DNA from: a virus
Taxonomy: Duplodnaviria > Caudoviricetes
IMG/VR virus record: IMGVR_UViG_3300038673_000301
Coordinates: 1-46,461 of that record
Strand: one strand, 5' to 3'
Length of the DNA stretch: 46,461 nt
Shown: piece after piece, positions 14,807 through 46,461 of the stretch
How the letters are laid out: every line of letters begins with the position of its first letter
Numbering within the stretch: position 1 is the stretch's first letter
Program-made: the position numbers and the translations under genes
The notes under the pieces: model-generated
The model's database searches: none
Seen by the model: only the letters and a program-made list of their open reading frames with translations
What the model was told of the DNA's origin: nothing

Positions 14807-14852
14807 TAATAGTCACAACATTTCACCGCGTCGCCCGCTTACATTTTAATTT

Positions 14853-15180: not shown

Positions 15181-15269
15181 CAATATTTATACGGTTATAA
15201 TAACGCCAGCCGGTCTTGATATGCTTTTTAATATATTAAGCGGGATATAATTTTTTATATACTTGGCCG

Positions 15270-28211: not shown

Positions 28212-28223
28212 CGCCCGTCGCTA

Positions 28224-28739: not shown

Positions 28740-28787
28740 AAATATAACTCCTGATGTTTTTCAAGGTACTTGGAAAGTCCCATACAA

Positions 28788-28818
28788 ATTAAAACAGGTG
28801 AAGAAAATTAAACCTGTT
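28788..28818 (-). terminator. Terminator-like hairpin after the MCP gene
   Basis: AACAGGT/ACCTGTT inverted repeat (28793-28799, 28812-28818) followed by TTAATTT on the minus strand. Confidence 0.45.
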
Positions 28819-29786: not shown

Positions 29787-29789
29787 TGT

Positions 29790-30413: not shown

Positions 30414-30416
30414 TTA

Positions 30417-31397
30417 TTACACACTCCTTATGAATAGTTTTTGAAGTTCGCGCTGGCTTTTGATAGTGTCATCGACCGGCTGACCGTTCAAAAATTCTTC
30501 GCCTTCCTCTTCCTTTTTCGGCGCTTCCTTCATGTTTTTAAACATCTTTAAACTGAATCCGGCGGGGTCGTCTGTCCATTCCTTTTTCAACTGTTCCTCG
30601 GCGCCTTCCGGTTTCAGCATTCCGATAGGCAGCGCGGTTTTGATTTCCTGCCATTTTGCGTTTAGCTTCTCAACTTTTGCTTCGTCCTCTGCTTTGCGAT
30701 ATTCTGCAATAACGCCGTCTGCCTCCTGCAGCCGGGCCTTCAAAGTGTCTATTTCTTTTTTAAGTTCTTCTAACTGTCCGTCGGGTTTGACTTCCGGCGG
30801 CTTTCCTTCCTCTCCCATGTGTTCGCCCTCCGCTTCTTTAAAAATTTCTGGTTGTTTAGCACCGTTAAAAATTGTACGTATGCCCTCCAAAAGTTCATCG
30901 AGTTTGTGTTTTGCATTAAGAAAACCGGACCCCCGGTCCACCGGGACGGCCAGCCCCTCTTCCACAAAAACCAGTAAATGTTGGGGTTTAATATTTTTTA
31001 CCTGTCCGTCCACAACACTTCCGAAAAAACCTGTTGATAAAGACAATTTCCCACTGTTGATAAATTCGTTTAATTCCTGTTGTTTTTTCGTGAATGTTGG
31101 TTTCGCAAGTAATTTGGGGTGTCCAGTTACTTCAATTCGTGGAGATGTTACGTATCCAACAATTTCTCCATTTATTTCAGCCAGTGCATCATCAACATTC
31201 TCTTCAAACTTCTTTGGGTTGGGGTGCCTCTGTGCATAAATAATTGGAATGTTGTTCCAACCGTCTAAATTTTCCTCAAAAGAATCAACTGGGTAAAAAT
31301 CACCACCAATATTTGCATTTAATGTTTGAAGTATAGCATCATGCGACTCTGTAAAGTTCCCTTTACCTTCAAACATTTTATCGTCAGTAGTTACCAT
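30417..31397 (-). CDS. Prohead protease fused to scaffold
   Basis: WNNIPII...HP, IVGYV, LSLSTGF, PQHLLVF (herpes/HK97-type protease pattern); acidic coiled-coil C-terminus. Confidence 0.8.
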   Translation of the reverse strand: MVTTDDKMFEGKGNFTESHDAILQTLNANIGGDFYPVDSFEENLDGWNNIPIIYAQRHPNPKKFEENVDDALAEINGEIVGYVTSPRIEVTGHPKLLAKPTFTKKQQELNEFINSGKLSLSTGFFGSVVDGQVKNIKPQHLLVFVEEGLAVPVDRGSGFLNAKHKLDELLEGIRTIFNGAKQPEIFKEAEGEHMGEEGKPPEVKPDGQLEELKKEIDTLKARLQEADGVIAEYRKAEDEAKVEKLNAKWQEIKTALPIGMLKPEGAEEQLKKEWTDDPAGFSLKMFKNMKEAPKKEEEGEEFLNGQPVDDTIKSQRELQKLFIRSV

Positions 31398-31447
31398 AAC
31401 ATCACTGTAAGAATATTAACATCAACAACTATATAAATATTGTGCGA
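31398..31447 (-). promoter_or_regulatory. Late-type promoter of the capsid/tail operon
   Basis: TCGCACAATATTTATATAGTTG..GTTAA..TACAGTGATGTT; twin at 43219-43269. Confidence 0.7.
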
Positions 31448-31879
31448 AAAAACAGATAAGTTTGGAGTTGTTGTGTAAAGCACCACGGCACACCGTTTTT
31501 AGAAACCACTATCAAGCGGCGTATGCCCTTTAAAGCCAATTTAAAGCGATTTGAGAGGGGGGTTTATATACCCCCTTATATTAGTATGGGAAACTTTTTT
31601 TCGTCGATTCGGGCGCACTGCTATCGATTATGTTCTCAAAAAAGTTTAAAGGTGAGGACATTGTAAACTTGCTCTGGTTTTTTATGTCGGAAATACTGTT
31701 GCATACTTCTTAATACAGTTGTTTTATCCACAACGCTTGATATAAAAACAGCAGGTGTTGTGGTGTATAAGTTTGTAGCATTGTTTATAGTGTTTATAAG
31801 GTTACGCGCTTAATTACAATCGTAAATATTTCAAAACATGTTTTAATAAAACGCATTGGTATAAAAAATGGGAAGTGTT

Positions 31880-32137
31880 TTAATAAACAACCATCAAATT
31901 ATCTTTATCACTTTTTACATATTCGTCGGTTTTTTCAACTGTTATTTTTTTTATGTGCCCGCCCAATTCTTTTATGGCTTTCCGGGCCATTGCTTCAACC
32001 GGGGCGGGTGTGTATCCTTTTATGCTGCCCGGCCCGGCGAGCCCGGTTAATAATGCTGTCAGCGCCGGGTTGTCCGATGACCAACCGGCGCTTGATATTG
32101 TGGCTTCTGTGCCTAACAACTCTATAATTATAATCAT
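31880..32137 (-). CDS. Hypothetical protein downstream of MuF (candidate immunity or partner protein)
   Basis: 85 aa, with its own TATA box and GGGGG RBS. Confidence 0.65.
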   Translation of the reverse strand: MIIIIELLGTEATISSAGWSSDNPALTALLTGLAGPGSIKGYTPAPVEAMARKAIKELGGHIKKITVEKTDEYVKSDKDNLMVVY

Positions 32138-32150
32138 GCTGTGGCCCCCA

Positions 32151-32193
32151 TTAATAGTTAGTTGTTATGTAACTGTTGGTATATATAACTATC
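32151..32193 (-). promoter_or_regulatory. Internal promoter resembling the early type
   Basis: TTATATATA, then AACTAACTATTAA, compared with ACTAACYACTAA at 1761 and 3384. Confidence 0.55.
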
Positions 32194-33921
32194 TCAATTC
32201 ATTGTTCTTATCAACCATTTAAAAAATTTATTGTGCTGTACAATTAATGTTTCTGGTTCGTCGTATAGCATCTCCATGCCGTAGCTTATCACTTCGGTAC
32301 TGCCCGGTTTCGTCGGGTCGCGGTCGCCGGGCGTGTTGTAAAATTTGCCCATATAAGAATGTGGATAATTACCAACGTAAGCAACTTCCGAAGCATCGTA
32401 ACTATTTATACCCGTTATGCTCGATAGTTTCTTCAGTCCCGCTTCGGTGGCTTCTTGTTCCCGATATGCACTGGCGGCGTGGAATATATCAATATTGTTA
32501 TATTCTATGTGGTGACTTATTTCATGTACAAAAATACGCGCTTCCGCCGTCGCTTCCATATTTACCCGCGTATACGGCACCGGACCGACGCTTGCCGATG
32601 ACCGATATGTCCCAATTTTAACATTTACTTCAACTTCGCCGCTTTTTATACCGTTTTTGAGTTTGTGCGGCGCCACCATGTGCCCCAAAAATTCGTCGGC
32701 CCGGCGTTCGCGTTCAATCATTGCAGCCGAGGCTTCGCGCGGCACAACTTTATATTTTGTATACGGGGTTTGTTCTGTTATATCGACGTGCTTAAATCCG
32801 TGTTTCGGTGCTGTGTCGTATATGTATAACTTGGGGTGTACTCTATCAAGATATTCATTTCGCAGCCGACGCTGTTCTGCCAGCGCGCCGTTAAATTTGT
32901 CTACCGCGTCCCATTGGGACGCATAAGACTTCTCAAAGATATCCGACCAATCGTTTATTTTTTTCATGCTTTCGCGCATCTGTTCTTCGACCATTGGTAC
33001 AAGTTCCGGCGCGGTTTTTGACCACTCTTCCTTCATTTCTAATAAACTTTGATAGTTTTGTTTTTCTTTTTCTATCATGTCCGGGTATTTATTAACTATT
33101 TCTATGTGTTTCCGTGCTTCGTCGCGGGTTTCGTTTACCAATCGGTCGACCGGCTCTGATTCTTTTCTGAATACTGCATATTCCTGCAATATTTCGTCGC
33201 TTGCGTTGTTCAGCCGTTCGTCGCTCAATCTTTCGGCCACGCTTCCCGGTTCGTATTCGGGGCCGGGTTCCGGTTCAAGTTCCGCGCCGGGTTTCGATAT
33301 TACCGGCACGTAAACACAACGGCAATTGGGCTCGCCCAACGGCGGCGCCTCATCAATGTTATACTCTTTACGGTGCCGGGCCAAATGGTCCGGCCGGGCG
33401 TTCGGCAGCGTGCTGTGTAACCAGCGGATCCGCTCAACATTGTTCTCTTTAAACCGTGCAAACGTCCCCTCGTATTGAATTTTGCGGGTTTCCGTGCGCG
33501 CTACCATCGACGCATGGGACCGCCGGCCGTTGAAATATTCGTGGAGTTCGGCAGCAATTGAATTTTTCGGATATCCGCCGCGCTTGCCCTGTTTAACGCC
33601 GGGGTTTTTTCCTTCCTTTATTCCCTTCGTGATAATTTCCGAAACCCGCTTGCGCTGGTCTTTCGACGATTCGATAAACCACGGTTTAAAAATCTTTCTG
33701 TCGTCCTCAACTACCCAACTGCCGCCTTTTTGTATAAGGTCTTTTTTATATTTGGCCGTGTATTTCTTAGCGTGGCTCTGTACCTGCTTCATAGAAATAC
33801 TTAAATTGAGCAACTTGTCGGCGTTAATTTCGCCGGCAGCATACGATTTCCCGGCCCCGTCTACAAGTATTTTTGCATACTGTTTGTCGTGGTCGTCAAA
33901 AGCATCATCCAACTCACTCAT
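32194..33921 (-). CDS. MuF (SPP1 gp7-like) minor head protein with C-terminal zincin metallopeptidase-like domain
   Basis: ASMVARTET, RPDH, PNCRC; then coiled coil; then FVHEISHHIE (HExxH) and TEVISYGME. Confidence 0.85.
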   Translation of the reverse strand: MSELDDAFDDHDKQYAKILVDGAGKSYAAGEINADKLLNLSISMKQVQSHAKKYTAKYKKDLIQKGGSWVVEDDRKIFKPWFIESSKDQRKRVSEIITKGIKEGKNPGVKQGKRGGYPKNSIAAELHEYFNGRRSHASMVARTETRKIQYEGTFARFKENNVERIRWLHSTLPNARPDHLARHRKEYNIDEAPPLGEPNCRCVYVPVISKPGAELEPEPGPEYEPGSVAERLSDERLNNASDEILQEYAVFRKESEPVDRLVNETRDEARKHIEIVNKYPDMIEKEKQNYQSLLEMKEEWSKTAPELVPMVEEQMRESMKKINDWSDIFEKSYASQWDAVDKFNGALAEQRRLRNEYLDRVHPKLYIYDTAPKHGFKHVDITEQTPYTKYKVVPREASAAMIERERRADEFLGHMVAPHKLKNGIKSGEVEVNVKIGTYRSSASVGPVPYTRVNMEATAEARIFVHEISHHIEYNNIDIFHAASAYREQEATEAGLKKLSSITGINSYDASEVAYVGNYPHSYMGKFYNTPGDRDPTKPGSTEVISYGMEMLYDEPETLIVQHNKFFKWLIRTMN

Positions 33922-35275
33922 ACTTTTTAGCCAGTGTTTCCATAACTCTCTGTTCGAGTTTGTTTACATTGTCGATTAGCTTCTTTTCCACGCCCGCCGC
34001 GACCCGGTCCACTATTGCAGCGTTCTGGCCGATATATTCAGCGCCGGTCGGGGCCCGGTTGTTTACATATTCGGCCAGTTCCTGTTCTTCCTCTTCCGTT
34101 AGCGGTTCCATATCAAGCAATTCCAAAATACGCGACGGCGGCGCTATCCGGTTGTTGATAAGTAGTTCAGCCTTTTTGATATTGCTGTCTGTCTTATCGA
34201 CACGCGGCGACGGTATGGAAATAAAAACTTTCCAGCCCGGCGGGTATTGGTTGTATATAAAGAACCTCTGCAATATTTGTTCGAACTGTTCTTCCAGCCA
34301 ACTGTGTATAGAACTTATAACCTGTGATAAAAGTTTTTCCCTTTCTTTTTCACCGCCGGCCAGCCCGTTCTCCCCCTGTCTTGCTATAAAACCGGCCGGG
34401 CTAATATAATCTACAACCGTGTTGTATAGCGCCGATATAACTTCAAGGTTATTACTGTTATCTGTTATGTTAAGGTCTATTAGTTCCATGTTTTCGCGTA
34501 ACTGGAAAGCCGTATCTTTGCCCCAATTTTGCAAAATGGTGTTTGCATATTCCACGTCGCCAACATTGCCGTTTTGCGTGCTTGGGCCGCGCGGATTCGT
34601 AACTTTTATAAACAGTATCTTAGCGCCGACCCGGTTTACCTGTTGCATTTGGCTATTCCATGTATATTTTAACATGTCGATAATAGGTATTAGCGGCAAC
34701 ATGACCGGGTCGCCGTCTATGAAACGGCTGGACGGGTCAATTATACCGATAGCGTTTTTTATATGAATGACGCTGCCCCGGCTGTTTGTTTGCCAATACT
34801 CAACCTCGCCAGCCTTGTTTAGAACTATACCGGCCAGCCGCAACGCGTATGTTTCCGGTATTCCGGGCGGTGCGTTTACAAAACTTTCAGCCGGCAAATG
34901 TCTTAATTTTTTTATGGTTATTGCGTTCGTTTCCGGGTCGCGGTCCCACACATCGTTAAAAACCGATATGCCGTGCCATAATATATCATCATACGCCTTT
35001 TGCATGTTGGCCCATAGTCGGCACTCCGTACACATTTTGTCGATGATGTTTGCGGTTTCCGGGTCCGGGTTTCCGTCTGCATCTTCCACAATAATTGTGT
35101 ACTCTTCCGGGAATATAAGCGATTGTAGCCGGCGGCTTATCCCCTTTCCGTATATGTTCAGCCGGGCGGCCTCTACCGTTTCCGGTGTCACATCATCACT
35201 GGCATACGGCGTCCCGCCGGTCGATGCTATATATACTTCGCCAATTTCGTTATTAAGTTTTGCTTTCTCCGTCAT
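33914..35275 (-). CDS. Portal protein
   Basis: 453 aa between TerL and MuF; DILWHGISVF, KLRHLPAESF. Confidence 0.85.
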   Translation of the reverse strand: MTEKAKLNNEIGEVYIASTGGTPYASDDVTPETVEAARLNIYGKGISRRLQSLIFPEEYTIIVEDADGNPDPETANIIDKMCTECRLWANMQKAYDDILWHGISVFNDVWDRDPETNAITIKKLRHLPAESFVNAPPGIPETYALRLAGIVLNKAGEVEYWQTNSRGSVIHIKNAIGIIDPSSRFIDGDPVMLPLIPIIDMLKYTWNSQMQQVNRVGAKILFIKVTNPRGPSTQNGNVGDVEYANTILQNWGKDTAFQLRENMELIDLNITDNSNNLEVISALYNTVVDYISPAGFIARQGENGLAGGEKEREKLLSQVISSIHSWLEEQFEQILQRFFIYNQYPPGWKVFISIPSPRVDKTDSNIKKAELLINNRIAPPSRILELLDMEPLTEEEEQELAEYVNNRAPTGAEYIGQNAAIVDRVAAGVEKKLIDNVNKLEQRVMETLAKKYE

Positions 35276-36615
35276 AAAGTCGGCCTCCGGTCGTTCCTCT
35301 GTATAAACATTTGTTGGGCCATATTCTGCCGCCCGGTCGCCTGTTCGGGTGTCGGCAGCGCGCCAGCGGATTCTGATAAATTAAATAACTGTACAACATA
35401 TCTTAAAGCGTCGAGCCTGTGGAATTTTTCTTTATCTTTTATTTTTTCGGTTGGTTGTGCTTTTTCGTCTAATACCCGGCTGTATGTCCCCAATTCGTCA
35501 AACAGCCCCTTGTTATCGTCGGTATCAAAAATAAAAAGCCGGTTTTCTTTAAATAACCGCGTTACCCGGTCGATTCCGATTTCCACATCTGAGAATTTCG
35601 GCTCTTCAACACGTATCCCGGCCTGTTCCCAATCAAGCCGGAATTGCTTTTCCGACGCCGAACCGCCTATCCAACGCAAAACATAATTACTATCTGCATA
35701 CTGTTTCGCCAATCTCACATGTTCGGCCGTTGTCTTGTTTCCCTGCAACGATGACCGGTAAACATAAAACCTTCCGGCCCGTTCGTCGGCCGCTACCCAT
35801 ACAAGCGCAGTATGTATCGCGCCGGGGTCTATACCGACATATCTTGTCATACTTGCGGGTATTGATACGGGTTTTATTTTATGTACGTCGGTGTTAAAGT
35901 CGCTGTATATCATACCCGCCGGCCGCGCATATTCGCCCATATAGAACATTTTGAATTTCCAATCGGGCAGCGCGGCCTTCCTTTTTTCAAACTCCGCCGC
36001 CGGGAAATTCGGGTTTGCTGTGGATGGGAATTGTATTATCTCTATGTCCGGGTCGCCTGCTACCCATTTGTCGTATATTTCGTTTTTCATCCAACCCAAA
36101 TTATATATTGTTGTTGTTACAAGTGCCCGGCCTTCGTGGATAGACAAACGCCTCAACAACGCTTCCCACGCTTCCAGCCTGAAACTGTCTTGGCCCGCTT
36201 CGTCTATATGCACCGCCTTAATGGTCGCGCTTTCCAAACTGTCGGGGTTATCCGCACTTGCAAAATAAATGTTATATTCGGACCCGTCCACGTCCTTAAT
36301 TTTCATAGTACGTTCTGCTTTATAATACTTTCCAATCTTTTTCGTGCGCTCAAAGAATAATTGGTACTCTGGCAGAAGTTTACGCTGTTGTAGTGGATAG
36401 GACGGCGACACGGCCATATAGTCGCCCGGTCCTTTTTCTACCATTTCGTTATATAACCACACGGGCGCAATGGCGGTTTTGCCGCTCTGTGTTCCCGCAA
36501 GCGCAAAAATAAACCGCTTTTTCGTCGTTAGCGCCTTCCCCTGTCCTTCGTGTGGGTGTACATATACATTGTTATCCGGGCCAAGTTCATATAACGTCGG
36601 CTTCTTTTTCGCCAT
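35272..36615 (-). CDS. terL: Terminase large subunit
   Basis: Walker A AGTQSGKT, Walker B VHIDEAG, nuclease motifs YVGIDPG and HRLDALRY. Confidence 0.95.
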   Translation of the reverse strand: MAKKKPTLYELGPDNNVYVHPHEGQGKALTTKKRFIFALAGTQSGKTAIAPVWLYNEMVEKGPGDYMAVSPSYPLQQRKLLPEYQLFFERTKKIGKYYKAERTMKIKDVDGSEYNIYFASADNPDSLESATIKAVHIDEAGQDSFRLEAWEALLRRLSIHEGRALVTTTIYNLGWMKNEIYDKWVAGDPDIEIIQFPSTANPNFPAAEFEKRKAALPDWKFKMFYMGEYARPAGMIYSDFNTDVHKIKPVSIPASMTRYVGIDPGAIHTALVWVAADERAGRFYVYRSSLQGNKTTAEHVRLAKQYADSNYVLRWIGGSASEKQFRLDWEQAGIRVEEPKFSDVEIGIDRVTRLFKENRLFIFDTDDNKGLFDELGTYSRVLDEKAQPTEKIKDKEKFHRLDALRYVVQLFNLSESAGALPTPEQATGRQNMAQQMFIQRNDRRPTL

Positions 36616-37189
36616 CGTCGCCCCCCTGTGCGCTTGTGTCGGGCATTATGATTATAACCCGCTGTGCCGGCGCGGCGTTGGTCCGGGTGTTCTCTGTCGG
36701 TTCGTCCAATATCAGCCTTTCCAATTTCACGGCTTCCGATATTAATTTGCTAAGTGACAGCATATCGATTTCGGGCGCGTGCCCCGTCCGTTCTATTTCC
36801 TCTTTAATGTCATGCAGCCGTTTCATTCCAACTTCCTGAACATCCTGTGCAAGTTTCAAATGGCGCAGTCTGGCACGCTTTCGCATTTGTGTGTCGGCTT
36901 CCATAATTTTTTTAGTGCGCCATTCCTCTAATACTTCCGTGCGCCGGGTCCAATAATACCGCGACGACCAGTCCTGAACCGTTCGGGGTGCTTTGTGGCC
37001 CAAAATCCTCATAACATTTCGCCGGCTTCTATAATTGGGATCGTCGCGCGGAACATCGGTTCTTAAACGAATAAAAATACAGAATGCTTCGTATGCTTTC
37101 AGCGGTTCCCGTGGCAATTTCTCCCACGGGTAAAACTCATCCGGGGGTATTTCCCTAACATGCTCTTTAATTTCCTTTCGGGTCGCCAT
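36587..37189 (-). CDS. terS: Terminase small subunit
   Basis: PWEKLPREPLKAYEAFCIF..RS..WSSRYYW pattern; immediately upstream of terL. Confidence 0.75.
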   Translation of the reverse strand: MATRKEIKEHVREIPPDEFYPWEKLPREPLKAYEAFCIFIRLRTDVPRDDPNYRSRRNVMRILGHKAPRTVQDWSSRYYWTRRTEVLEEWRTKKIMEADTQMRKRARLRHLKLAQDVQEVGMKRLHDIKEEIERTGHAPEIDMLSLSKLISEAVKLERLILDEPTENTRTNAAPAQRVIIIMPDTSAQGGDDGEKEADVI

Positions 37190-37192
37190 TTA

Positions 37193-37711
37193 TTACGCCG
37201 TCCGCGTCTTAGTAACAGAAGTTCCGGTGTCCTGTAATGTGTGGCTTGCAACAATAGTTGCGCCGTCGGTGTCGTAAGTTGTCATTCCGGTTTCGGTCAC
37301 AACTTGTTTATTAAGTAGTAATGCGTGTATCTCTCTTAACATTTTTCCCACAGTTTCGCTTTCAATGTGGTTGCTGCTATTGATAACCTCGTCCAACACG
37401 CTGTCGGCGGTCGGTTCTACAATTGCAATTGTCCGGGTTTCCGGGTCCACACCGTCGGCTGATATTGTTAAACACAATTCCCCGGCAGCCGCGACCATGT
37501 TTTCTGAATTAATCGCAACTTTGTAAACACCCGGCATATACGCCGCGCTAACTTCCACAATTTGTACAAGAACTTCAGTTGCCGCACCACCATTTAAACT
37601 ATAATAAGAATCTACGTTTGTTAAGGTTCCCGTCATACGGCTTATGTGGTCGGTGCTTTGTGTAAGAACAAAATAAACATATTTTGTCGTATCACCTACA
37701 TTTATCATCAT
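37193..37711 (-). CDS. Hypothetical structural protein
   Basis: Ig-like N-terminus (VEVSAAYMPGVYKV); follows the spike gene. Confidence 0.65.
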   Translation of the reverse strand: MMINVGDTTKYVYFVLTQSTDHISRMTGTLTNVDSYYSLNGGAATEVLVQIVEVSAAYMPGVYKVAINSENMVAAAGELCLTISADGVDPETRTIAIVEPTADSVLDEVINSSNHIESETVGKMLREIHALLLNKQVVTETGMTTYDTDGATIVASHTLQDTGTSVTKTRTA

Positions 37712-37872
37712 AGTTTATTCATACCCCCGTGTAAATTTCTGTTCACTGTCATACGCTTATTAATTGGAAATTTCCGGGTACGTACCCGGACACGGGCGCC
37801 CGGCGGCAGTGTTATATCGCTTGGATAAAGGGTATCACTTGGATATAAAGTTTCGCTTGGATATAAAGTCAT
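37708..37872 (-). CDS. Micro-protein with (TLYPS[ED])x3 repeat, 54 aa
   Basis: Manual translation MTLYPSETLYPSDTLYPSDITLPPG...; GGGGGAG RBS; ATGA overlap with the next gene. Confidence 0.65.
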   Translation of the reverse strand: MTLYPSETLYPSDTLYPSDITLPPGARVRVRTRKFPINKRMTVNRNLHGGMNKL

Positions 37873-37873
37873 T

Positions 37874-39544
37874 TTAAAACTCCCCCACGTACCACGCCGG
37901 GGCGCTGCTGTATGTTATACTGATCATACTACCCGGCTGCAGCCTGAAATGACCCGATGTTAGCCCGGTTGCGGCCGGGGTTCCGCCCGTCTTTGCTATG
38001 TTTATTGCGCTTACAACACCGCCGGAAATGAATATATCCAACGGCACCCCGTAGGTATTTGTCCACGAAACACCACTGGCCGGCAATGTCGGCTGCGAAC
38101 TTAGCGGCCCAACGGGGTTATATCCTTCGTTGTCGGTTGCGTAGCTGTTAGCACCGACCAGCAAAACGGCCGCCGTTGTAAATTCTTTACATAAATTATA
38201 TGCAAATTTTGTTTTGTTAGATGTCCCGGTTTCCTGCACACAATAAGTATGGGCTGTTAATATCTTGTTCCCGATAATGGTTGTTTCGTTCGCGTTTTCG
38301 ATGTAAAACCCGGCGCCGGAGTTGTTGTGGCATATACCGCCTATAAAACTGTTCTGGTTTGCGCTTGTTAGATGCACCGCGTTTCCCGCGATGTTCTTAA
38401 CTATCAAGCCATTAAAACAGTTGCCCGAACAGTACGTGTTAAAATCGATACCAACCGGGGTTGTTACCGACACACCGCCCAAAATATACACGTTTATAAA
38501 CATGTTTCTAAAGAAACTTTCGGCCGCGTATATTCCAGCGCCTTTTGTGTACTGAACCAAAACATTTGAAAAAAGATTACTGTCGGCAGTATTTGTGAAA
38601 TTGATTCCGGCCGCGTTCGATGCGCCGTTCCCGCTGTCCTGCACAATCTTTACAAAATTGAATAGATTGTTTGAACTGCTTGTTGCCAGTATTCCTTCGT
38701 TCCATTCGTTAGTTACTGCAAGCCCGTTAAATTCGTTGCCCCCCACTGCACTAAGATAAACGCCGGGCCCGTGTATGTCGTCAATGGTCACGCTGTTAAA
38801 ACGGTTTCCTGATATTGAAACCGTAGTCGGCGACCGCAGCCTTATTCCAGCGGTGTTAAAACCGTATGAACTGTCAAATTCTCCCTGTATAAGCACGTTG
38901 TTAAAAGTGTTATAGAGTATTGCCGCGCTGCTGATAGTGTCGATTCCCGTATCTATACCATAGCGGATTGTCACGTTTAACAATTTGTTATACGGTCCGT
39001 TCAACTGCACCGCTGTATATAGCCATTCAAAAACGCAGTTTTCGACAGTGTTTCCCGTTCCCGTTTTCATACCTATTATAGTATTCGTCGAACCGTGGCT
39101 GCTAAGCGTGAAAACCGCGTTTTTGATGACAAAATTGGTAGCGGCCGACGCATCTATGCCGACGGTGCGCCCGTCCAATGTTATTTGGGCACCGTGGAAA
39201 TCTATTATACAGTTGCTCTGGCCGGTTAAATCTGCACCCAGAGCCCGGTTTCCGCCCACATAATGAATTGTTTTATATGGGTTTGCTGTCATTGCGGCCG
39301 TTAGTGCTGCAGCCAAATTGTCGTATTCGGCCGCGTCGTATGTACATAAATTATTATATCCGACCGTAACCGCCCCGGCCGCCGCGAACAGCCCGCCCGG
39401 CGTTAATCCCTGCAACAATTCAACATCGGCCCCGCCGCCGTCGCCTTCGTAACAGCCTTTTAAAGCGTCCATAATGTCGTTTAAGTTTGTGGCGTTTATC
39501 GCCGGCGCTTGGTCGTTTACCCAAACAATTTCATCCCATGTCAT
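37874..39544 (-). CDS. Right-handed beta-helix spike / polysaccharide depolymerase-like protein
   Basis: Virion-anchor-like N-terminus WVNDQAPAINATNLNDI; many PbH1-like Asn-ladder repeats; no signal peptide. Confidence 0.8.
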   Translation of the reverse strand: MTWDEIVWVNDQAPAINATNLNDIMDALKGCYEGDGGGADVELLQGLTPGGLFAAAGAVTVGYNNLCTYDAAEYDNLAAALTAAMTANPYKTIHYVGGNRALGADLTGQSNCIIDFHGAQITLDGRTVGIDASAATNFVIKNAVFTLSSHGSTNTIIGMKTGTGNTVENCVFEWLYTAVQLNGPYNKLLNVTIRYGIDTGIDTISSAAILYNTFNNVLIQGEFDSSYGFNTAGIRLRSPTTVSISGNRFNSVTIDDIHGPGVYLSAVGGNEFNGLAVTNEWNEGILATSSSNNLFNFVKIVQDSGNGASNAAGINFTNTADSNLFSNVLVQYTKGAGIYAAESFFRNMFINVYILGGVSVTTPVGIDFNTYCSGNCFNGLIVKNIAGNAVHLTSANQNSFIGGICHNNSGAGFYIENANETTIIGNKILTAHTYCVQETGTSNKTKFAYNLCKEFTTAAVLLVGANSYATDNEGYNPVGPLSSQPTLPASGVSWTNTYGVPLDIFISGGVVSAINIAKTGGTPAATGLTSGHFRLQPGSMISITYSSAPAWYVGEF

Positions 39545-42500
39545 TTATACCACGTCCGCAAATAATGAAAACTGTGTGTCCTCTGCACCGTATAGCCCGG
39601 CCCACGCCCACAAGGTCACGTTTTCGCCCGGCTGCAGTTCAGTCCCGACGGTTTGCGGCGTTGCTGTTAGCTGTATACTGTCGCCGTTCTTTATCGGGTC
39701 GTTGTCTACCCATATTTTTATAGTGCTTGTTGTGTTCCTGTCCAAATATACCACGGGGTCGCCGGCGGCTTCGCCTACATTCGTTATTTTTAGCGTCGGC
39801 TGGTAGTATGTCTGTGCGTAGTTCGGTACAAGATTAGCCCACCAAAACGCATCGAAAAATAAATAATCCAACGCTTCGCCGGTGTACCACATTTCGCCGT
39901 CCCAATACTCGAAACCAGCAAGCGGCGGTATACTGAATCCGACATCGTAATATTTTTCGTCATCGGTTGCCTGTGGTCCGGTGACAATGGTTATTAGTCC
40001 GTTGCTGTCTTTTGAAATTTCGGCGTTTATATTATCAGTATCAAAATATTCAATAGTTACATTATTGTACCTATCGTCGTTTATCTGATAAAATATCGTG
40101 CCGTTGTCACTGTCCAATAAAACTTCCTGTGTTATGGACACGTTCAACTGTCCGCTGGCCCTTGTTTCCTCGGTTGTTAAGTTCGTTTCTGTGAAAACGA
40201 TATCAATAGACGGTGTGAAATTGGACAGATTAAACGCCGTGAATTCTATTTGTGATAAGTTGCCTTCACCGTATGGAACCGGCAGCGGGTTATCAAATAA
40301 ACTGTTCCACTGTTGCGACCACGGACCGAGCCCGCGCGCCCTCATATATTTGTTGTCTGTGCTGTCGATATTAACTTCCACGCTGCTAAGATATACACTT
40401 GAGTAATTTTGCGACAGTGTAAACGGTGTGGTGTAGTTCATCGGGGCCCCGGCGTCGGTATATGTCCCGATGTAGCCCGTCAAAACCGGCTGGTATTCGC
40501 CGGCTTCCGGTTCGGGTGTTTCGCTTATTATCTGAACGTGCCATATATACTCATCATATTCGCCGCCGGCCTCTACTGCAACCATAACATTATAAAACCC
40601 GGTCGCCTGTCCGACGCCCCACGTATAACTATCCGATAAAGTTTCGTTTGTTGTTTTGCCTTCAATACCGTTATATGTCCATGTATAATTGGCTGCCGTG
40701 CTTGTTTCAGCCGTAAATGTCATCGGGTCGTCTACTATCAGGTTTATGTAGTCGTACGGGCTCGTTGCGATAATGGTCAAACTCACCGGCTCTTCTGCTG
40801 TGTATAACCACGTTATTTCGTCGTCGGCTGTCACCGCTTCGATTCCGTATACGTCCGCTTCCGTCGGTGTGAATGTATAGTTTGCAGTGAAAACGGGCGA
40901 TTCCACATAATCAATTTCTGCTACAAGTCCGTTTTTATACCAAGTTACGGTACCGTTTGCCGTTGTTTCCACCGAAAACGCGGCCGGGTACCCGACATAA
41001 CCTTCCGGCGTTGTGTCTATGGGTGTAAAATTCGCTATCATTACGGGTTCGGCGGCCTCGGCTGATATTGTCAGCAACGGCACGCGATCGGGGTTCCCGT
41101 TGTCCATTGAATAAAACCCTATGTAATTATCACTTTCAGTCCGCGCTTTTAACAAATATCCACGGTTATTATCTTCCGCAAGTTCTTTTGTAAGATTCGT
41201 AACGTCTATTAAAATATATGCGTTGCTTGCTTCCTGTTCTGCCTGTATAGTGTACGACGCATACGGATTTGTGCCCATTGGTGTATTATCAGCATCAAAC
41301 CACGTTCCGCCGGCTATGGCCCACGCCGACCCGGTTTCCCGCGAATTCCATGTAACCTCGTCCTCTTTCCAAACCCCCGAAACTTTATAAACATCTATAA
41401 TGGTGTCGTTGTTCCGGGTCGTCGGCGGGTATGGATAATACCAATATAATTTTAAATACGCCTGTCCGATGTCATCCGGTTCGTATTCGCTAAGATTAAA
41501 CCATATCAGATGGCGGTATACCGTGCTGGCGCTGGCTATTTCTCCAATGTCCAAAAAGCCCAAACTTCCGAAATTATCATCCGGGGTGCTGCTTTTTATA
41601 CGGGCGTCATATTGTATAAATATTTCCGGCTCTTCGGGTATAACCCCGCCCGGCGTCTTGCTTGCTTCTATTGTGTTACCATACCGGCCAATATTAATCC
41701 GGCCGCCGTTCGGTGCCGGTTCTAAACTGTAAGAACTGCTTGCATATCCGGCGTCGATACATGGGCTGCTTACGCTATCCAATACCCACCCGGCACCGGT
41801 CCACCGGCCCGCCGTGCTTCTTAAATGGTAATCACGGGCGCCCCAATCGCCGGACACTACCGCGCAACGTGGGTCGGCCTCAATGTTGTTTGTCATTGTA
41901 AATCCGCCGGTTCCGGTCGCGCCGTATGTAAGCCCCACGTTGTTATAAAAACAGTTGTTCTCAACTATGAAACGGTTATTAGTCCAACGGTTTTCGATAC
42001 CATAACCCCAATTCACCGGTGAACTTTCCGGCGCGGTGTTTGCACAATTCATTATAATATTATTTCGGACGTAGGTTGTAAACTGCACGGCCGTTTGTAT
42101 GCTGTCGGCTGTGCGCCCGGCCCACAAAACCGCGCCATAACCGCAATCGTCAAAAACATTATTCTCTATGCGCGTGCCCTGTGCGTTCGATACATCTATT
42201 CCGGCGTTCGAATATCCCGTATAAGGATAATGGCCCAAATATGAAAATGTGTTGTGGTGTATGTAAATATTTGTCATACGTGGCGTACTGTCGCCGGGGT
42301 TTCCGTGTCCAATCCACATCCCGGCCCCACGGTTATTATAAAATTTGTTATTATATACTTCTATTGTATTAAAATATGGGCTGCCAGCCGTGGTGTGTAT
42401 TTCCATTAACGGGCCGGTATACCCCGATGCAATGACACTATAAAAAACATTATCATGCACATAAGCGCGCTGTATCCCGTCCGATAGCCGCACCGCTGAA

Positions 42501-43216
42501 TTTGTACGCGTTCTTATAGTGTTGTCCCAAACATAAATATCAGTACAAGTTAAGAAATAAAAAACGTCGTGCCCCAACTCATAGCCGGTACAGCCGGATA
42601 CGTAAATGTGATCGCTGTTCCTGATATTCGCGCCGTCCAAGTCGCCGTATCTTAATGTTAAATCAGTTAAGTATAGATAAGAAACATCATTAAACTGCAT
42701 CAAAATGTCGGGGTGCGAACCCGTGGTGCCGCCCAAATAAGACATAGAGGGGTGCGCACCGTCTAAAGTTATTTTTGATATTGTTATGTGGTTCGCGCTG
42801 TCTACTGCATCTATAAGATTAACGCCGCCGGCGGCCTCTGCAGCCGTGGTGTATGTCAAAACTGCTGTACTGTCGCCCGTTAGCGTTATACCGGTGTTGG
42901 GGCCAACAATGTCAGCCGCCACATAATATGTGTGTGGCCCTTTTAGGTATACCGTAGTATACCCGGCCCCCTTGTTCGCGTATACATAGGCCAGCGCGTT
43001 TGTTATTACCGTGTTGTCGGTGCTGCTGCTTGCGGTTCCTGTACAAGTATACGTTGTGGTGCCGGCCGTGTCGCCCGGATTACCAACATAACCAACATAC
43101 AAAACCGGCGGCGACGCCGGACCCGCTGTAATAAAACTCGCTGTTAAAGCACCAACTGTTAAAACAATTAAAAGAGAATAGATAATTTTTGAAACGCCGT
43201 CTAATCTGTCATACAT
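39545..43216 (-). CDS. Secreted disaggregatase-like protein (beta-helix + DNRLRE repeat + Ig-like domains)
   Basis: Signal peptide; YTTVYLKGPHTY, YIHHNTF, DYHLRSTAGRW..SPCIDAG..EPAPNGGRINIGRYGNT..ASK; YDARIKSSTPD..LDIG..YRHLIWFNLSEY..LYWYYP..VTWN..GGTWFD..LLKARTESDNYIGFYS. Confidence 0.85.
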   Translation of the reverse strand: MYDRLDGVSKIIYSLLIVLTVGALTASFITAGPASPPVLYVGYVGNPGDTAGTTTYTCTGTASSSTDNTVITNALAYVYANKGAGYTTVYLKGPHTYYVAADIVGPNTGITLTGDSTAVLTYTTAAEAAGGVNLIDAVDSANHITISKITLDGAHPSMSYLGGTTGSHPDILMQFNDVSYLYLTDLTLRYGDLDGANIRNSDHIYVSGCTGYELGHDVFYFLTCTDIYVWDNTIRTRTNSAVRLSDGIQRAYVHDNVFYSVIASGYTGPLMEIHTTAGSPYFNTIEVYNNKFYNNRGAGMWIGHGNPGDSTPRMTNIYIHHNTFSYLGHYPYTGYSNAGIDVSNAQGTRIENNVFDDCGYGAVLWAGRTADSIQTAVQFTTYVRNNIIMNCANTAPESSPVNWGYGIENRWTNNRFIVENNCFYNNVGLTYGATGTGGFTMTNNIEADPRCAVVSGDWGARDYHLRSTAGRWTGAGWVLDSVSSPCIDAGYASSSYSLEPAPNGGRINIGRYGNTIEASKTPGGVIPEEPEIFIQYDARIKSSTPDDNFGSLGFLDIGEIASASTVYRHLIWFNLSEYEPDDIGQAYLKLYWYYPYPPTTRNNDTIIDVYKVSGVWKEDEVTWNSRETGSAWAIAGGTWFDADNTPMGTNPYASYTIQAEQEASNAYILIDVTNLTKELAEDNNRGYLLKARTESDNYIGFYSMDNGNPDRVPLLTISAEAAEPVMIANFTPIDTTPEGYVGYPAAFSVETTANGTVTWYKNGLVAEIDYVESPVFTANYTFTPTEADVYGIEAVTADDEITWLYTAEEPVSLTIIATSPYDYINLIVDDPMTFTAETSTAANYTWTYNGIEGKTTNETLSDSYTWGVGQATGFYNVMVAVEAGGEYDEYIWHVQIISETPEPEAGEYQPVLTGYIGTYTDAGAPMNYTTPFTLSQNYSSVYLSSVEVNIDSTDNKYMRARGLGPWSQQWNSLFDNPLPVPYGEGNLSQIEFTAFNLSNFTPSIDIVFTETNLTTEETRASGQLNVSITQEVLLDSDNGTIFYQINDDRYNNVTIEYFDTDNINAEISKDSNGLITIVTGPQATDDEKYYDVGFSIPPLAGFEYWDGEMWYTGEALDYLFFDAFWWANLVPNYAQTYYQPTLKITNVGEAAGDPVVYLDRNTTSTIKIWVDNDPIKNGDSIQLTATPQTVGTELQPGENVTLWAWAGLYGAEDTQFSLFADVV

Positions 43217-43218
43217 GA

Positions 43219-43269
43219 AACACCACTGTATAAAATTTAACGTGCTTCAAGTATATAAATTATTTGCGA
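43219..43269 (-). promoter_or_regulatory. Late-type promoter of the disaggregatase-spike-terminase operon
   Basis: TCGCAAATAATTTATATACTTG..GTTAA..TACAGTGGTGTT; twin of 31398-31447. Confidence 0.7.
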
Positions 43270-43538
43270 TATGGACAATTTGTCCATGTTTTACCCGCTT
43301 TAATAGTTTCTTCGGGAATGATAGTTTCGTTTACATTTAAAAAATTGTTGTGTTTGCAGTAATAAACCACGCCGGCCCGGTGCCGGCTGTTCCCTGCACA
43401 TTCATATATAGGCAATTGGCCCAAATCTATACAACGACAACACGGCACCAAAAACGATTCTATGGCACCGACGGGCTCATATACGGCCCGGTTTTTTGCT
43501 TCCCTGTATGTTTGTATTAGCCGGCGTGTTTCGTTCAT
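43260..43538 (-). CDS. Cys-rich hypothetical protein
   Basis: Start MNETRR; PCCRC..YYCKH..NCPY. Confidence 0.6.
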   Translation of the reverse strand: MNETRRLIQTYREAKNRAVYEPVGAIESFLVPCCRCIDLGQLPIYECAGNSRHRAGVVYYCKHNNFLNVNETIIPEETIKAGKTWTNCPYRK

Positions 43539-43573
43539 TGTGTGGCCCCTGTGAAACTGTACAACATTATAAA

Positions 43574-43861
43574 TTAAAAATCTTTCTGTGTTTGCCAAAC
43601 ATAGCCGCACACCGAACACTTCGCATAAAATGTTATTGTGTTCGGTTCGCTGGCGTGTTTGCCCGGCGGTCCGAACTTAACATGCACCGAATACTTAACC
43701 GATACGGGGTTCCGTTCCTTTTCAAGTTGCAGCAAAGCGGCTTTTATTTCGGCCAATGTCATTTCGTTTTTAGCGGCTTCAAGTTCCTTATACCGGTCGG
43801 GCCGTATACCGTCGCATATTGGACACGGCGCGTTGTTCCGGTCGTCTGTTTCTGATATCAT
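43574..43861 (-). CDS. Zinc-ribbon protein with coiled insertion
   Basis: CPIC...CSVCG; GGAGG RBS. Confidence 0.7.
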   Translation of the reverse strand: MISETDDRNNAPCPICDGIRPDRYKELEAAKNEMTLAEIKAALLQLEKERNPVSVKYSVHVKFGPPGKHASEPNTITFYAKCSVCGYVWQTQKDF

Positions 43862-43863
43862 TT

Positions 43864-44088
43864 TTAAACCTCCCTCTCAACAACTTCGAATGTTCGGTTT
43901 CCCACTTTGAAAAAAACACGGTCCACGTCCTGCACAATTTCAACACGCTCTGGCACGAACGTAAACGTAACTTTTGAAAAATCATCAACGGGCACATCTA
44001 TATGAATGTTCTGTACATAGTCCAGCCGCTGCCCGTTTAATTCGATCACGTTATCCAGCCAGTCTGTGCCACATAGCTTAAAACTCAT
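43864..44088 (-). CDS. Hypothetical protein
   Basis: IELNGQRLDYVQNIHID..KVTFTF, a small beta protein pattern common in phages. Confidence 0.65.
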   Translation of the reverse strand: MSFKLCGTDWLDNVIELNGQRLDYVQNIHIDVPVDDFSKVTFTFVPERVEIVQDVDRVFFKVGNRTFEVVEREV

Positions 44089-44098
44089 GGGTTTCGTT

Positions 44099-44254
44099 TC
44101 ACAGCCCCCTTGATTCTATAAGCGCGTAGTTGTTCACTATCCGATATAAAGACTTTTTAATTTCCTTTATATCTTCGCTGTGCCCGTCTGTCCAAATTTC
44201 GTCCAGCCGTCCTTCTATCTTCTCCACTTCTTTTAATATATCGAACTGTTCCAT
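44099..44254 (-). CDS. Small helical protein (51 aa)
   Basis: Manual translation MEQFDILKEVEKIEGRLDEIW...; GGGGG RBS. Confidence 0.5.
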   Translation of the reverse strand: MEQFDILKEVEKIEGRLDEIWTDGHSEDIKEIKKSLYRIVNNYALIESRGL

Positions 44255-44303
44255 ATCAAAACCCCCGTTTATAGGCAGCGCATATCGATTGTGCTTCCCG
44301 ATT

Positions 44304-44410
44304 TCATTTCGTTTTAAAGACCGTTTTTAAGCCCAACACGGCATTTTGCCCCCACCCCAATAGAAACATATTAACCGGGTTCTAAAATCACCGTGGCGGC
44401 CCACTGGCGC
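44304..44410 (+). repeat. Intergenic repeat family, copy R4
   Basis: About 66 bp of strong similarity to 9230-9295; right arm TAAAATCACCGT similar to R3. Confidence 0.75.
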
Positions 44411-44417
44411 GTTCCTA

Positions 44418-44873
44418 TCATATCCTGCACGCCGTACCTTTACACACGGCCTTTTCTTCCGCCCCCAACTTCATGTCCATAACTTCTTTCGATAGTTTCT
44501 CAACGGTCCGTTCCAAACCCTGCAACTTTACAAGAATCTGCCGGCGGTCGTCCTCTTCGTTTAATAGGTCTTGGTAGCATTCCCGATGATACACTTTTAA
44601 GCCGACCGATACTCTTTCGCTTCGGTCGTATATCGGGCTGCGGCAGCGCGAGCATGTTTCCGGCGTTTCCACTGCACACCGACAATTCGGCCCGGTGTCC
44701 GGGGCCGCGACCGTTTCCAATTCTTTTATAAGATGTTCTGCAACCGCCACAAGTCCGCCCGGCCCCAAACGCCCGGAGTTATAATCATATACGGCCTGCT
44801 GTAAGTCCTGTGTAAACAGTATAATTTTATCTGCGGTGTATCCAAAGTCGCCGTAAAAGTCGCTGTCGTTCAT
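44418..44873 (-). CDS. Protein with LIM-like zinc finger and coiled coil
   Basis: CSRC..GLKVYHREC; start MNDSD after AGGTG. Confidence 0.65.
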   Translation of the reverse strand: MNDSDFYGDFGYTADKIILFTQDLQQAVYDYNSGRLGPGGLVAVAEHLIKELETVAAPDTGPNCRCAVETPETCSRCRSPIYDRSERVSVGLKVYHRECYQDLLNEEDDRRQILVKLQGLERTVEKLSKEVMDMKLGAEEKAVCKGTACRI

Positions 44874-45094
44874 GTTATCACCTTTAACAACATATACAAA
44901 ATTATTGCAGCCTGCATCAAAATAATAAACAGCATCAACGATGCCTCTTTTGCTATACTTACGCAACGGTGATGATATAAATCTTTTCCAATCCAGCGGC
45001 CTGTATTATTCGACACCGGCTGCATACACACCGGGCACACTTTCACACCACACGTCCAAAAAACTTTTTTACCGTTGTTTTCTAATTCGTTCAC
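44870..45094 (-). CDS. LIM-like zinc finger protein with C-terminal TM helix
   Basis: CPVC..GKDLYHHRC then LMLFIILMQAAIILYMLL; start uncertain. Confidence 0.55.
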   Translation of the reverse strand: MNELENNGKKVFWTCGVKVCPVCMQPVSNNTGRWIGKDLYHHRCVSIAKEASLMLFIILMQAAIILYMLLKVIT

Positions 45095-45251
45095 TTTCCT
45101 GCCCCCATAACAGTTTATAAACTTGATGCATTCGCGGATAATGCACCAAACGCGATTCCCCGACCTCGTCGGTAATTTCTGCAAGAAGTTCTCCCGCCTC
45201 TGCATCGGTCAAGATAATGTTTATTAGTCCACCGTCTTTATAATGTATCAT
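45069..45251 (-). CDS. Hypothetical protein
   Basis: 60-aa ATG ORF in the operon. Confidence 0.5.
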   Translation of the reverse strand: MIHYKDGGLINIILTDAEAGELLAEITDEVGESRLVHYPRMHQVYKLLWGQESERIRKQR

Positions 45252-45381
45252 TGTTTACCGTCCTTGTATAAGCGTTCCCGGCGCTTTCGTGTAGTCAATT
45301 CAAACGCGGCGGCCCACGGGTCGCCGTCATCTGCATGTTTTTTATACCGTTTCATTCTACCAACCGCACCCGGCGCGCGTG

Positions 45382-45630
45382 TTAGTGTTCCTCTATACAG
45401 AACTGTTCCAGCGCGTCGCTTAACGATGTTCTTTTAACTGTTGCCCGGCCTATTTCCCGGTTCAGTTTTTCAACTGCAGCCGATACTTTGCCGGCGTAGG
45501 TCCGGCCCAATAACCGCCCGATCATTCCCGGCGGCCTTATATACCGTTCCCTGTAAACGTGGCCGGTCGTGTCGTCCTGTATATAGACGTAAGTAAAGCC
45601 GGCCGATGCTTTCGTTTTAACTGTCATCAT
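45382..45630 (-). CDS. Hypothetical protein
   Basis: 82 aa with GGGGG RBS. Confidence 0.6.
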   Translation of the reverse strand: MMTVKTKASAGFTYVYIQDDTTGHVYRERYIRPPGMIGRLLGRTYAGKVSAAVEKLNREIGRATVKRTSLSDALEQFCIEEH

Positions 45631-45740
45631 TTATTTATACCCCCATGTTTTTAATACCGGTCGCTTCCATAATTGCCCCCAAAAAACTGCTCGTCGCACG
45701 TAACCCGCACGTTTAATTTTACCTGTGCGTCTATTTCCAT

Positions 45741-46112
45741 TTAATCAGCCTTCCCGTATAGCCGGCCCAGCCGTTCCGGGTGTTCAGCCATGTGACACAC
45801 CACACACAAAATTTCGATGTTGTCCGACCGGGCGTTCTTTATGTTCCGGTCTTTGTGGTGCCTGTGGTGCTTCTTTCCGGTTTCGTCGTAAGCGCCGCAC
45901 CGTTCGCAATGGTGTGTATCCCGGCCGCTTGCCCTCACGACCGCTTCGGCCCTGTAAAACATTGCCCGGCGGCTCGATGGCACATAATCGCTTATAACCT
46001 CATAAACACCGGGTTCAACTTCGTAAATTTCATTGTTTCCACACATAATGGTTGCCTCCATTCGATATTTACCATTATGTACATTATTAGATATAAAGAT
46101 TTCGTTGTGCAA
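45741..46112 (-). CDS. HNH endonuclease
   Basis: CERCG..HRHHKDRN..N..DNIEILCVVCH..EH; start may be ATG 46046. Confidence 0.85.
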   Translation of the reverse strand: MHNEIFISNNVHNGKYRMEATIMCGNNEIYEVEPGVYEVISDYVPSSRRAMFYRAEAVVRASGRDTHHCERCGAYDETGKKHHRHHKDRNIKNARSDNIEILCVVCHMAEHPERLGRLYGKAD

Positions 46113-46407
46113 TGGCCGGCACTATTTCGCCCGCCCGTTTGTGTTTTGAAAAATTCGCCACTTCGCGCGGTGATTTGGGCGGGTTATCTTTTAACAGTTG
46201 ATACATGGCCAGCCGCTTCAGTTTTTTTCTAAATGGCATACGCGGCGGCCGGTTCTCTTCGGCTATCAGCATAGCATATAACAGTATAAACATTATTTCT
46301 ACATAGTCCCGGTCCCGGCCGTAGCCGTCGGCCGTATCCGATATTAGCTGAATTGTTGCCGGGTCCACGTCGGCGGCCGCGCGAATATAAAATTTTAAGA
46401 AGTCGCT
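46087..46407 (-). CDS. C-terminal half of the DUF7004-like protein (continues from 1..274)
   Basis: LYAMLIAEEN..KKLKRLAMYQLL..EVANFSK motif; in frame across the junction. Confidence 0.7.
   Translation of the reverse strand, partial: SDFLKFYIRAAADVDPATIQLISDTADGYGRDRDYVEIMFILLYAMLIAEENRPPRMPFRKKLKRLAMYQLLKDNPPKSPREVANFSKHKRAGEIVPAIAQRNLYI
46353..46407 (+). repeat. Terminal direct repeat, right copy
   Basis: Identical to 1-55. Confidence 0.95.
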
Positions 46408-46461
46408 CTGACATACTCCACACGCTAAAGCTGTGTGGGTTCTACGGTTATTTTTCTGTTT
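46408..46461 (-). mobile_element. Right end of an IS200/IS605-family element (partial; alternative allele)
   Basis: Minus strand AGAACCCACACAGCTTTAGCGTGTGGAGTATGTCAG: a subterminal hairpin with CTTTAG loop ending GTCAG. The empty allele has TTTAC immediately 5' of the junction. Confidence 0.65.

Follow-up and report, generated by a model that had tools for sequence, protein, structure and literature searches.

A disaggregatase-family protein with a predicted export signal is encoded at the head of the morphogenesis operon of a tailed virus

Domain organisation of P0001

The IMG/VR virus record IMGVR_UViG_3300038673_000301 (Duplodnaviria, Caudoviricetes) comprises 46,461 bases, is recorded as linear with a completeness of 89%, and was analysed at its full length (the window). 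An open reading frame (ORF) on the minus strand (nt 43,216–39,545), the strand of all the genes and protein features described here for the window, gives a stop-free translation of 1223 amino acids (aa), designated P0001. An earlier, sequence-only reading had described this protein as virus-encoded and secreted, with an N-terminal hydrophobic signal, a beta-helix, a DNRLRE-type repeat and immunoglobulin (Ig)-like modules. The analyses reported below show that P0001 is a member of the disaggregatase-related family (PF08480 plus PF06848) and that its gene is a long-resident viral gene.

A predicted Sec signal peptide occupies approximately residues 1–33 (nt 43,118–43,216), with a putative cleavage site and a hydrophobic core at residues 11–29. 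By hydropathy, this core is the sole strongly hydrophobic segment of P0001 (Kyte–Doolittle 19-mer 2.28; next best 1.14), a pattern consistent with a signal peptide. An N-terminal hydrophobic signal is also present in the orthologue carried by a related complete virus, G001, where the identity of this part is only 29%. Export by the Sec pathway is probable.

Residues 37–521 (nt 41,654–43,108) form a right-handed beta-helix, the putative catalytic domain. The Pfam family Disaggr_assoc matches residues 283–490 (E = 1.6e-38, 133 bits against a curated cut-off of 22.6), and AlphaFold2 (AF2), using a 54-row alignment, modelled residues 36–525 as a right-handed beta-helix (predicted local distance difference test (pLDDT) 87.6, predicted template modelling score (pTM) 0.92). 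The top four Foldseek matches to the helix are the A-modules of AlgE6 and AlgE4, alginate epimerases active on polyuronates, and are followed by the adhesin PfbA (rank 5), GH110, the HK620 tailspike and GH28 enzymes. Sequence searches of P0001 and its neighbour P0121 (see below) against the PDB gave no useful match; a profile search of the PDB returned PKD matches stemming from other rows and one weak match to an alpha-galactosidase.

The helix is followed by a single, likely glycan-binding module of the DNRLRE/Disaggr_repeat/CBM96 type at residues 537–717 (nt 41,066–41,608). It was recovered by Pfam (Disaggr_repeat, E = 1.5e-48, 165 bits, cut-off 33.9) and by NCBIfam (DNRLRE_dom, NF033679, E = 2.9e-34, 118.5 bits, cut-off 34), and the motif that gives the module its name is degenerate. 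P0001 also matches the Pfam families CBM96 (E = 1.2e-12) and Beta_helix (E = 1.3e-11) above their curated cut-offs. A connection between CBM96 and DNRLRE is described in passages of PMC9971899. The boundaries of helix and module, earlier placed at about nt 43,110–41,650 and 41,620–41,065, proved correct, and the proposed searches with Disaggr_assoc and Disaggr_repeat gave matches far above the curated cut-offs.

Residues 723–1100 (nt 39,917–41,050) constitute an Ig-like stalk rich in N-X-S/T sequons. The Ig-like modules of the sequence-only reading are borne out in part: the first two are homologous to a membrane-anchored viral glycoprotein (BLASTP, E = 1e-11, G001 copy) and residues 1022–1100 show a weak Ig fold match (VIA Z 5–6), but a Pfam scan of P0001 returned no Ig family. 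Residues 725–1223 contain 16 sequons against 5.8 expected, a number reached by none of 2000 shuffled sequences, and the same region of the G001 orthologue contains 14 against 7.7 expected (p = 0.007); over the whole protein, nine sequons are positionally conserved between the two. The first 724 residues are sequon-depleted, and P0001 as a whole is not enriched (19 against 15.0, p = 0.16). The remaining residues, 1101–1223 (nt 39,548–39,916), form a conserved terminal domain, a predicted docking or sorting domain that was recognised by its identity to G001 and its database relatives.

Relationship to disaggregatases

The reference sequence for comparison was P0124 (1077 aa, three DNRLRE repeats, from a cluster including BAB59139.1), which we take to be the Methanosarcina mazei disaggregatase Dag. 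P0001 aligns with it over 710 aa at 35% identity (E = 2e-99). Both proteins have a Disaggr_assoc beta-helix followed by DNRLRE, and a cluster of conserved residues in P0001 (D194, H216, D217, R237, N239, S240 and R243; nt 42,637–42,488) corresponds one for one to Dag D154, H176, D177, R197, N199, S200 and R203. In a conservation count over 94 core family rows, which leaves aside 14 divergent ones, H216 and R243 both come close to invariance, with a fraction of 1.00. Since the conserved residues lie on adjacent coils, we infer that the cluster is the active site; loss of catalytic residues had been named as a possible objection to the assignment, and all seven of these family-conserved polar residues are retained. 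Unlike Dag, P0001 is viral, has one DNRLRE module rather than three, and carries about 500 extra residues of stalk and terminal domain.

According to passages of a review (PMC12369344), the M. mazei enzyme is the only characterised member of the family; it is extracellular, as P0001 is predicted to be, hydrolyses methanochondroitin, and disperses cells rather than lysing them.

Trees were built with FastTree from the 108 rows left after dereplication of 277 helix domains, and with IQ-TREE from 41 rows picked by hand; L021 (E = 4e-5) failed the helix hidden Markov model filter and was left out. IQ-TREE places P0001 in a fully supported clade (100/100) with paralogues from Methanomethylovorans and Methanosarcina sp. 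KYL-1, and FastTree likewise sets it with these and apart from Dag, P0001 having an unusual residue composition and a long branch in these trees. A grouping of P0001 with L015, seen with FastTree, was not reproduced by IQ-TREE. The Methanomethylovorans and KYL-1 paralogues are the nearest cellular relatives of the helix (40–45% identity; 42–45% for Methanomethylovorans, which are the closest), but they carry PKD or more DNRLRE modules and do not have the terminal domain of P0001. Family copies number 3, 3, 8 and 8 in the four host genomes checked, and most host paralogues are annotated merely as surface proteins.

Gene neighbourhood and viral origin

The stop codon of P0001 is followed immediately by the start codon of P0121 (nt 37,874–39,544), a second beta-helix protein of 556 aa that is signal-less, tailspike-like and conserved in three viruses. 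It matches Pfam Beta_helix (E = 1.1e-9) and, at its C-terminus, phrog_31370, and it has an N-terminal motif that is presumably tail-fibre-like. Next is a conserved gene for a 172-aa protein (nt 37,193–37,711) with no Pfam or PHROG match, which is 57% identical in the viral contig L122 and is also found in L001. Directly downstream of this cassette are the small and large terminase subunits (nt 35,272–37,189; PHROG 6299 and PHROG 2), and then genes for head morphogenesis, connector and tape-measure proteins (Pfam, PHROG). Short direct repeats between the P0121 and 172-aa genes (nt 37,814–37,859) may encode a small peptide.

The same arrangement occurs in G001, a complete virus of 52.3 kb with terminal repeats, where a P0001 orthologue (1307 aa, 52% identity) is followed by a 556-aa beta-helix protein, the 172-aa gene, terminase and portal. 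L122 has the same cassette order, with a P0001 homologue of 43% identity whose 5' end lies beyond the contig. The L014/L122 gene is interrupted by an in-frame TAA; a frameshift was rejected as the cause, as was pyrrolysine read-through, since the stop codon is TAA. A terminase search gave three loci, one of them G001 and another, L006, an unrelated-looking phage.

In codon usage, P0001 follows the viral core genes (r = 0.86) and shows no correlation with host homologues (r about 0). Contigs of four other studies cover P0001 and the packaging genes as short pieces, and one spans the junction at nt 39,545 between P0001 and the next gene. Between P0001 and its G001 orthologue, the helix is 62% identical, near the value for the major capsid protein (65%), and the three helix variants found among the 40 listed of 113 variants are all synonymous. 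The gene is therefore a long-resident viral gene and not a host-derived chimeric segment, a possibility raised at the outset; its description as virus-encoded is upheld by the cassette in two other viruses, the codon usage and the contigs of other studies. No tyrosine integrase was found in either of the two genomes searched (G000 and G001), in keeping with lytic viruses, for which a way out of the host is required.

An archaeal promoter element resembling a B recognition element (BRE) and TATA box lies upstream of P0001 (nt 43,252–43,268, minus strand). In both the window virus and G001, a like element precedes the capsid scaffold gene; that of P0001 ranks 3 and 11 among 92,884 by matrix, rank 11 being obtained with the scaffold-only matrix. 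P0001 is the first gene of the head-morphogenesis operon. Its earlier placement as the first gene behind a late promoter agrees with the operon position and the shared element, by which P0001 would be expressed late.

Two further genes are of note. The first (nt 25,447–27,621) specifies a 724-aa protein, predicted to be a Sec-exported glycoprotein, that shares Ig modules with P0001 and has a C-terminal membrane anchor. It has 21 sequons against 8.7 expected (counted in a longer, 787-aa ORF) and a G001 orthologue of 35% identity. An anchored, exported glycoprotein within the head–tail module is unusual for a tailed virus. In both complete viruses it is followed by a gene for a small protein with multiple hydrophobic segments (nt 25,113–25,436), which, by its position and size, appears holin-like; a Pfam search gave no significant match, and the similarity of the G001 ORF was judged by eye. 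This gene lies about 14 kb from P0001.

The terminal domain

The last 123 residues of P0001 are 74% identical to the G001 orthologue, more than the helix (62%) and level with both the major tail protein, at 74%, and a 207-aa capsid-associated protein, at 75%. The domain has no Pfam family and no transmembrane segment. A search with residues 905–1223 against 1.84 billion representatives gave 31 matches, and the domain was found at or near the C-terminus of 29 other proteins, this being the matches less those from its own cassette and one Ig false positive, plus one protein from another search. An N-terminal hydrophobic segment is present in 24 of the 29 and a C-terminal one in none; sequons exceed the shuffled mean in all 29. 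The heads of these proteins vary and include LamG (13), beta-helix types (9, one of them a chondroitinase B, P0178) and DNRLRE (3).

The terminal domain was not found in any of the 177 Methanosarcinaceae genomes searched, and a profile search of 284 Methanosarcinales genomes matched eight, solely outside the domain. No stand-alone version of 72–231 aa was found, only one copy was seen in each of the window and G001, and a scan of viral contigs yielded no other such protein. Clusters of terminal-domain proteins on contigs of 42–66 kb were seen in five of the ten cases checked. Atlas matches to the domain reach at most 0.84 and serve as a lead only. The fold of the domain was modelled poorly (pLDDT 49.5), and likenesses to Ig and pilin folds are weak: those to the pilin subunits CS17 and CooA (Z 4.9–5.1, root-mean-square deviation 3.3–4.0, 88–108 residues aligned) fall within the background of the search and derive from this low-confidence model. 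The terminal domain is an undescribed family and merits description as such whichever function holds; its conservation points to a partner, and we predict a docking or sorting role.

Related helices in other viruses

Helices resembling this family were detected on at least 11 other viral contigs (two scans, one over 31 of 64 parts). Signal-less versions lie beside or within the tail genes of L002/L003, L016 and L019. L016 carries three in tandem in its tail region (nt 5875–10,986), those of L003 (nt 3864–8744 and 9974–11,470) are fused to a distal-tail-like protein, and L019 has one (nt 550–5753); all are candidates for virion-borne matrix depolymerases. Signal-bearing versions occur in G001, L015, L018 and L020. 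The protein P0072 of L015, a 183-kb viral contig, combines a signal-bearing helix with DNRLRE (nt 5929–9951) but does not have the terminal domain. In L018 (nt 5905–12,884) and L020 (nt 5437–12,634) the helices bear both signal and anchor and are adjacent to an 867–875-aa protein and membrane proteins in a conjugation-like setting; these two records may not be tailed viruses. Two further proteins, P0089 and P0090, combine a helix of this family with LamG and Ig domains and an anchor at the C-terminus, and so look like hybrids of the window's two predicted exported proteins.

In the IQ-TREE phylogeny, the copies from the tail regions of L003 and L016 fall on branches separate from that of P0001, which suggests repeated recruitment. 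The location of signal-less helices beside or within tail genes suggests that viruses have repeatedly used the family helix on host glycan, which supports the function proposed below.

Host

The family to which P0001 belongs suggests a host within the Methanosarcinaceae, and the host is likely a methane-making archaeon. A search of 177 Methanosarcinaceae genomes for spacer-like perfect matches of at least 30 bases to nt 27,000–46,461 of the window (19.5 of 46.5 kb) found none, at low sensitivity (two candidates per genome). Relatives of the major capsid protein were found in two of these genomes (G081 and G045), which is weak evidence of host. That of G081 is on an all-viral-looking contig of 46.7 kb, with no P0001 homologue within the 40 kb examined. 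On contig C4 of G045 (L117/L118), a decayed capsid-gene remnant stands among chromosomal-looking genes. The assignment of a substrate depends in turn on that of the host.

Proposed function

How archaeal viruses leave hosts that have no pseudomurein is, according to PMC10791045, largely open, and passages of PMC12369344 state that cells inside aggregates resist the virus MetSV. We consider that P0001 has about an even chance of being an exported matrix depolymerase that aids the release and spread of progeny; that its substrate is specifically methanochondroitin is possible but somewhat doubtful. Under this proposal, P0001 would be made alongside the head genes late in infection, and then exported by the host Sec system and N-glycosylated, as the signal and the sequon-rich stalk suggest. 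The DNRLRE/CBM96 module would hold it on an acidic (uronic-acid) glycan, the groove containing D194, H216, D217 and R243 would cleave an acidic polysaccharide in the host's envelope or in the matrix of its aggregates, and the terminal domain would tether the protein near the infected cell. As Dag disperses cells without lysis, breaking the membrane would be the task of a different protein, perhaps the holin-like one, and P0121 would handle entry. Progeny could then leave the clump, and neighbouring cells would be exposed. The sequence-only reading had likened P0001 to an endolysin, a comparison that is poorly suited to a relative of an enzyme that disperses and does not lyse; matrix depolymerase is the better term.

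Several observations weigh against this proposal. P0001 falls outside the Dag clade, and an approximately unbiased (AU) test rejects joining the two (p = 4e-5, for groups defined after the tree was made); the earlier label of disaggregatase homolog therefore holds as family membership by domains but not as orthology to Dag, from which the single DNRLRE module also sets P0001 apart. No characterised member was found in the clade of P0001 itself. At best, P0001 works like a disaggregatase. The N-terminal Dag positions W90, Y129, Y130 and N131, otherwise conserved, differ in P0001 (the loop alignment is uncertain here), and to our knowledge the catalytic residues of Dag have not been mapped experimentally. 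The presence of PfbA, a non-catalytic adhesin, at Foldseek rank 5 means that the fold alone is no proof of catalysis. A stalk of about 500 residues and a strongly conserved tail exceed the needs of a freely diffusing enzyme, and the L122 gene carries its in-frame TAA either through error or through loss. Regarding the host, codon usage of the virus and of host homologues is uncorrelated (r about 0), third-position G+C content is 0.50 against 0.39 (Methanosarcina, Methanomethylovorans), and no statement that Methanomethylovorans makes methanochondroitin was found in the literature. The claim of resistance within aggregates did not appear in a term search of the text of the paper that the review cites for it.

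The stalk and the rank of PfbA are accommodated by a different, though unlikely, explanation, namely that P0001 is a non-catalytic or weakly catalytic adhesin, an exported glycoprotein that would be tethered at the surface of the infected cell, bind host glycan and pull neighbours in for cell-to-cell spread. The anchored glycoprotein built of the same modules, the LamG lectin domains of 13 of the 29 terminal-domain proteins and the naming of most host paralogues only as surface proteins are in keeping with it. Against it, the conserved acidic/His/Arg cluster is retained, and both the sole characterised family member and, by its chondroitinase B domain, the terminal-domain relative P0178 speak for an enzyme.

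The adjacency of the P0001 and P0121 genes, a pair kept together in three viruses, could also indicate that P0001 strips the glycan bound by the P0121 tailspike, destroying the receptor or excluding superinfection; export would put the enzyme where the receptor is exposed. The reaction would be that of the main proposal, but it would serve to keep progeny from sticking to the dying cell and to prevent the attachment of rival viruses. We regard this as rather improbable, as a promoter common to the capsid genes would presumably act late for exclusion, and no integrase was found, leaving no evident lysogenic stage. About as improbable is a virion accessory, exported and glycosylated, then docked on released virions through the terminal domain and used to drill into the next aggregate upon entry. 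The sequence-only reading had held that a Sec-exported protein cannot be built into virions; this is sound for assembly in the cytoplasm but leaves docking on the cell surface or virion after export. The 74% identity of the terminal domain, on a par with tail and capsid-associated proteins, its absence from the host genomes searched, its faint likeness to CS17 and CooA and the position of P0001 at the head of the head operon favour such a role, against which the pilin match lies within background on a low-confidence model (pLDDT 49.5), a signal-less tailspike-like helix is already encoded, and we know of no precedent. The idea that P0001 is misassembled host DNA or a recently captured passenger deserves next to no credence: the record is classed as linear and incomplete, and a 121-kb contig is listed as carrying the identical protein, but synteny with G001 and L122, viral codon usage, cellular matches of only 42–46%, the contigs of four other studies with the bridged 39,545 junction, and a repeat (nt 1–55 and 46,353–46,407) that fits a circular assembly all contradict it.

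The depolymerase proposal may be extended, tentatively and with a fairly low probability, to a two-enzyme strategy in which entry relies on a virion tailspike and exit on a depolymerase that is exported, glycosylated and clipped by its C-terminal domain onto the surface of the infected cell or onto released virions. If true, it would be the first such mechanism of egress among viruses whose methanogen hosts are encased in matrix, and the terminal domain would represent a wider sorting system by which archaeal mobile elements display interchangeable glycanase or lectin heads.

P0001 is real and conserved, and would be a variant among the viral enzymes that degrade host envelopes, set apart by its terminal domain. 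Comparable are the Sec-exported phage endolysin Lys44 of Oenococcus phage fOg44 (PMC6116005) and the SAR endolysins, which are viral enzymes that degrade the envelope, are exported by a signal peptide, as is predicted for P0001, and have a separate holin; they cut peptidoglycan and lyse, whereas P0001 is a glycanase-like beta-helix whose characterised relative disperses cells. Among archaeal viruses, the pseudomurein endoisopeptidases of psiM1, psiM100 and phi-mru were the sole wall-degrading egress enzymes to appear in passages of PMC10791045, but these viruses infect Methanobacteriales and the enzymes are peptidases, unrelated to P0001 in fold and host order. HK620-type tailspike depolymerases share the right-handed, glycan-active beta-helix; phage tailspikes are virion-bound and signal-less, which fits P0121 and not P0001 with its hydrophobic signal. 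A disaggregatase-related protein encoded on a Methanosarcina plasmid is proposed, in passages of a preprint (bioRxiv 10.64898/2026.10.06.756670), to alter aggregation; there too the family is represented on a mobile element, but the plasmid protein is 60% identical to a chromosomal copy and lies outside any viral morphogenesis operon. Full-text literature searches, in whose scope subscription papers and supplementary annotation tables did not fall, returned no viral disaggregatase, in agreement with the earlier remark that no characterised viral example was known.

P0001 is a concrete, expressible egress candidate that can be assayed directly. If active, it would imply that viruses control the aggregation of digester methanogens, would be usable as a tool to disperse methanogens, and would give the first functional handle on a large clade of disaggregatase paralogues.

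Other features of the genome

The first 55 bases of the window are an exact copy of nt 46,353–46,407, which suggests a circular assembly. The last 54 bases presumably resemble an IS200/IS605 end, and this may explain the classification as linear. A 912-aa protein (nt 5963–8701, minus strand) contains an archaeo-eukaryotic primase (AEP) domain like PrimPol_Msp, scoring under the cut-off of that model. Two AT-rich palindromes, each about 90 bases long (nt 6902–6995 and 15,096–15,212), are related to one another (89% complementary) and are possibly origins or protein-binding sites; one is inside the primase-like gene and the other follows the last tail gene. The tail region also specifies a 914-aa protein (nt 16,393–19,137, minus strand), which contains two glycine-rich repeats and matches AgmC weakly at the N-terminus. 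A 57-base element occurs three times (nt 9223–9279, 14,834–14,890 and 44,297–44,353; 75–84% identical), and these copies are possibly early promoters.

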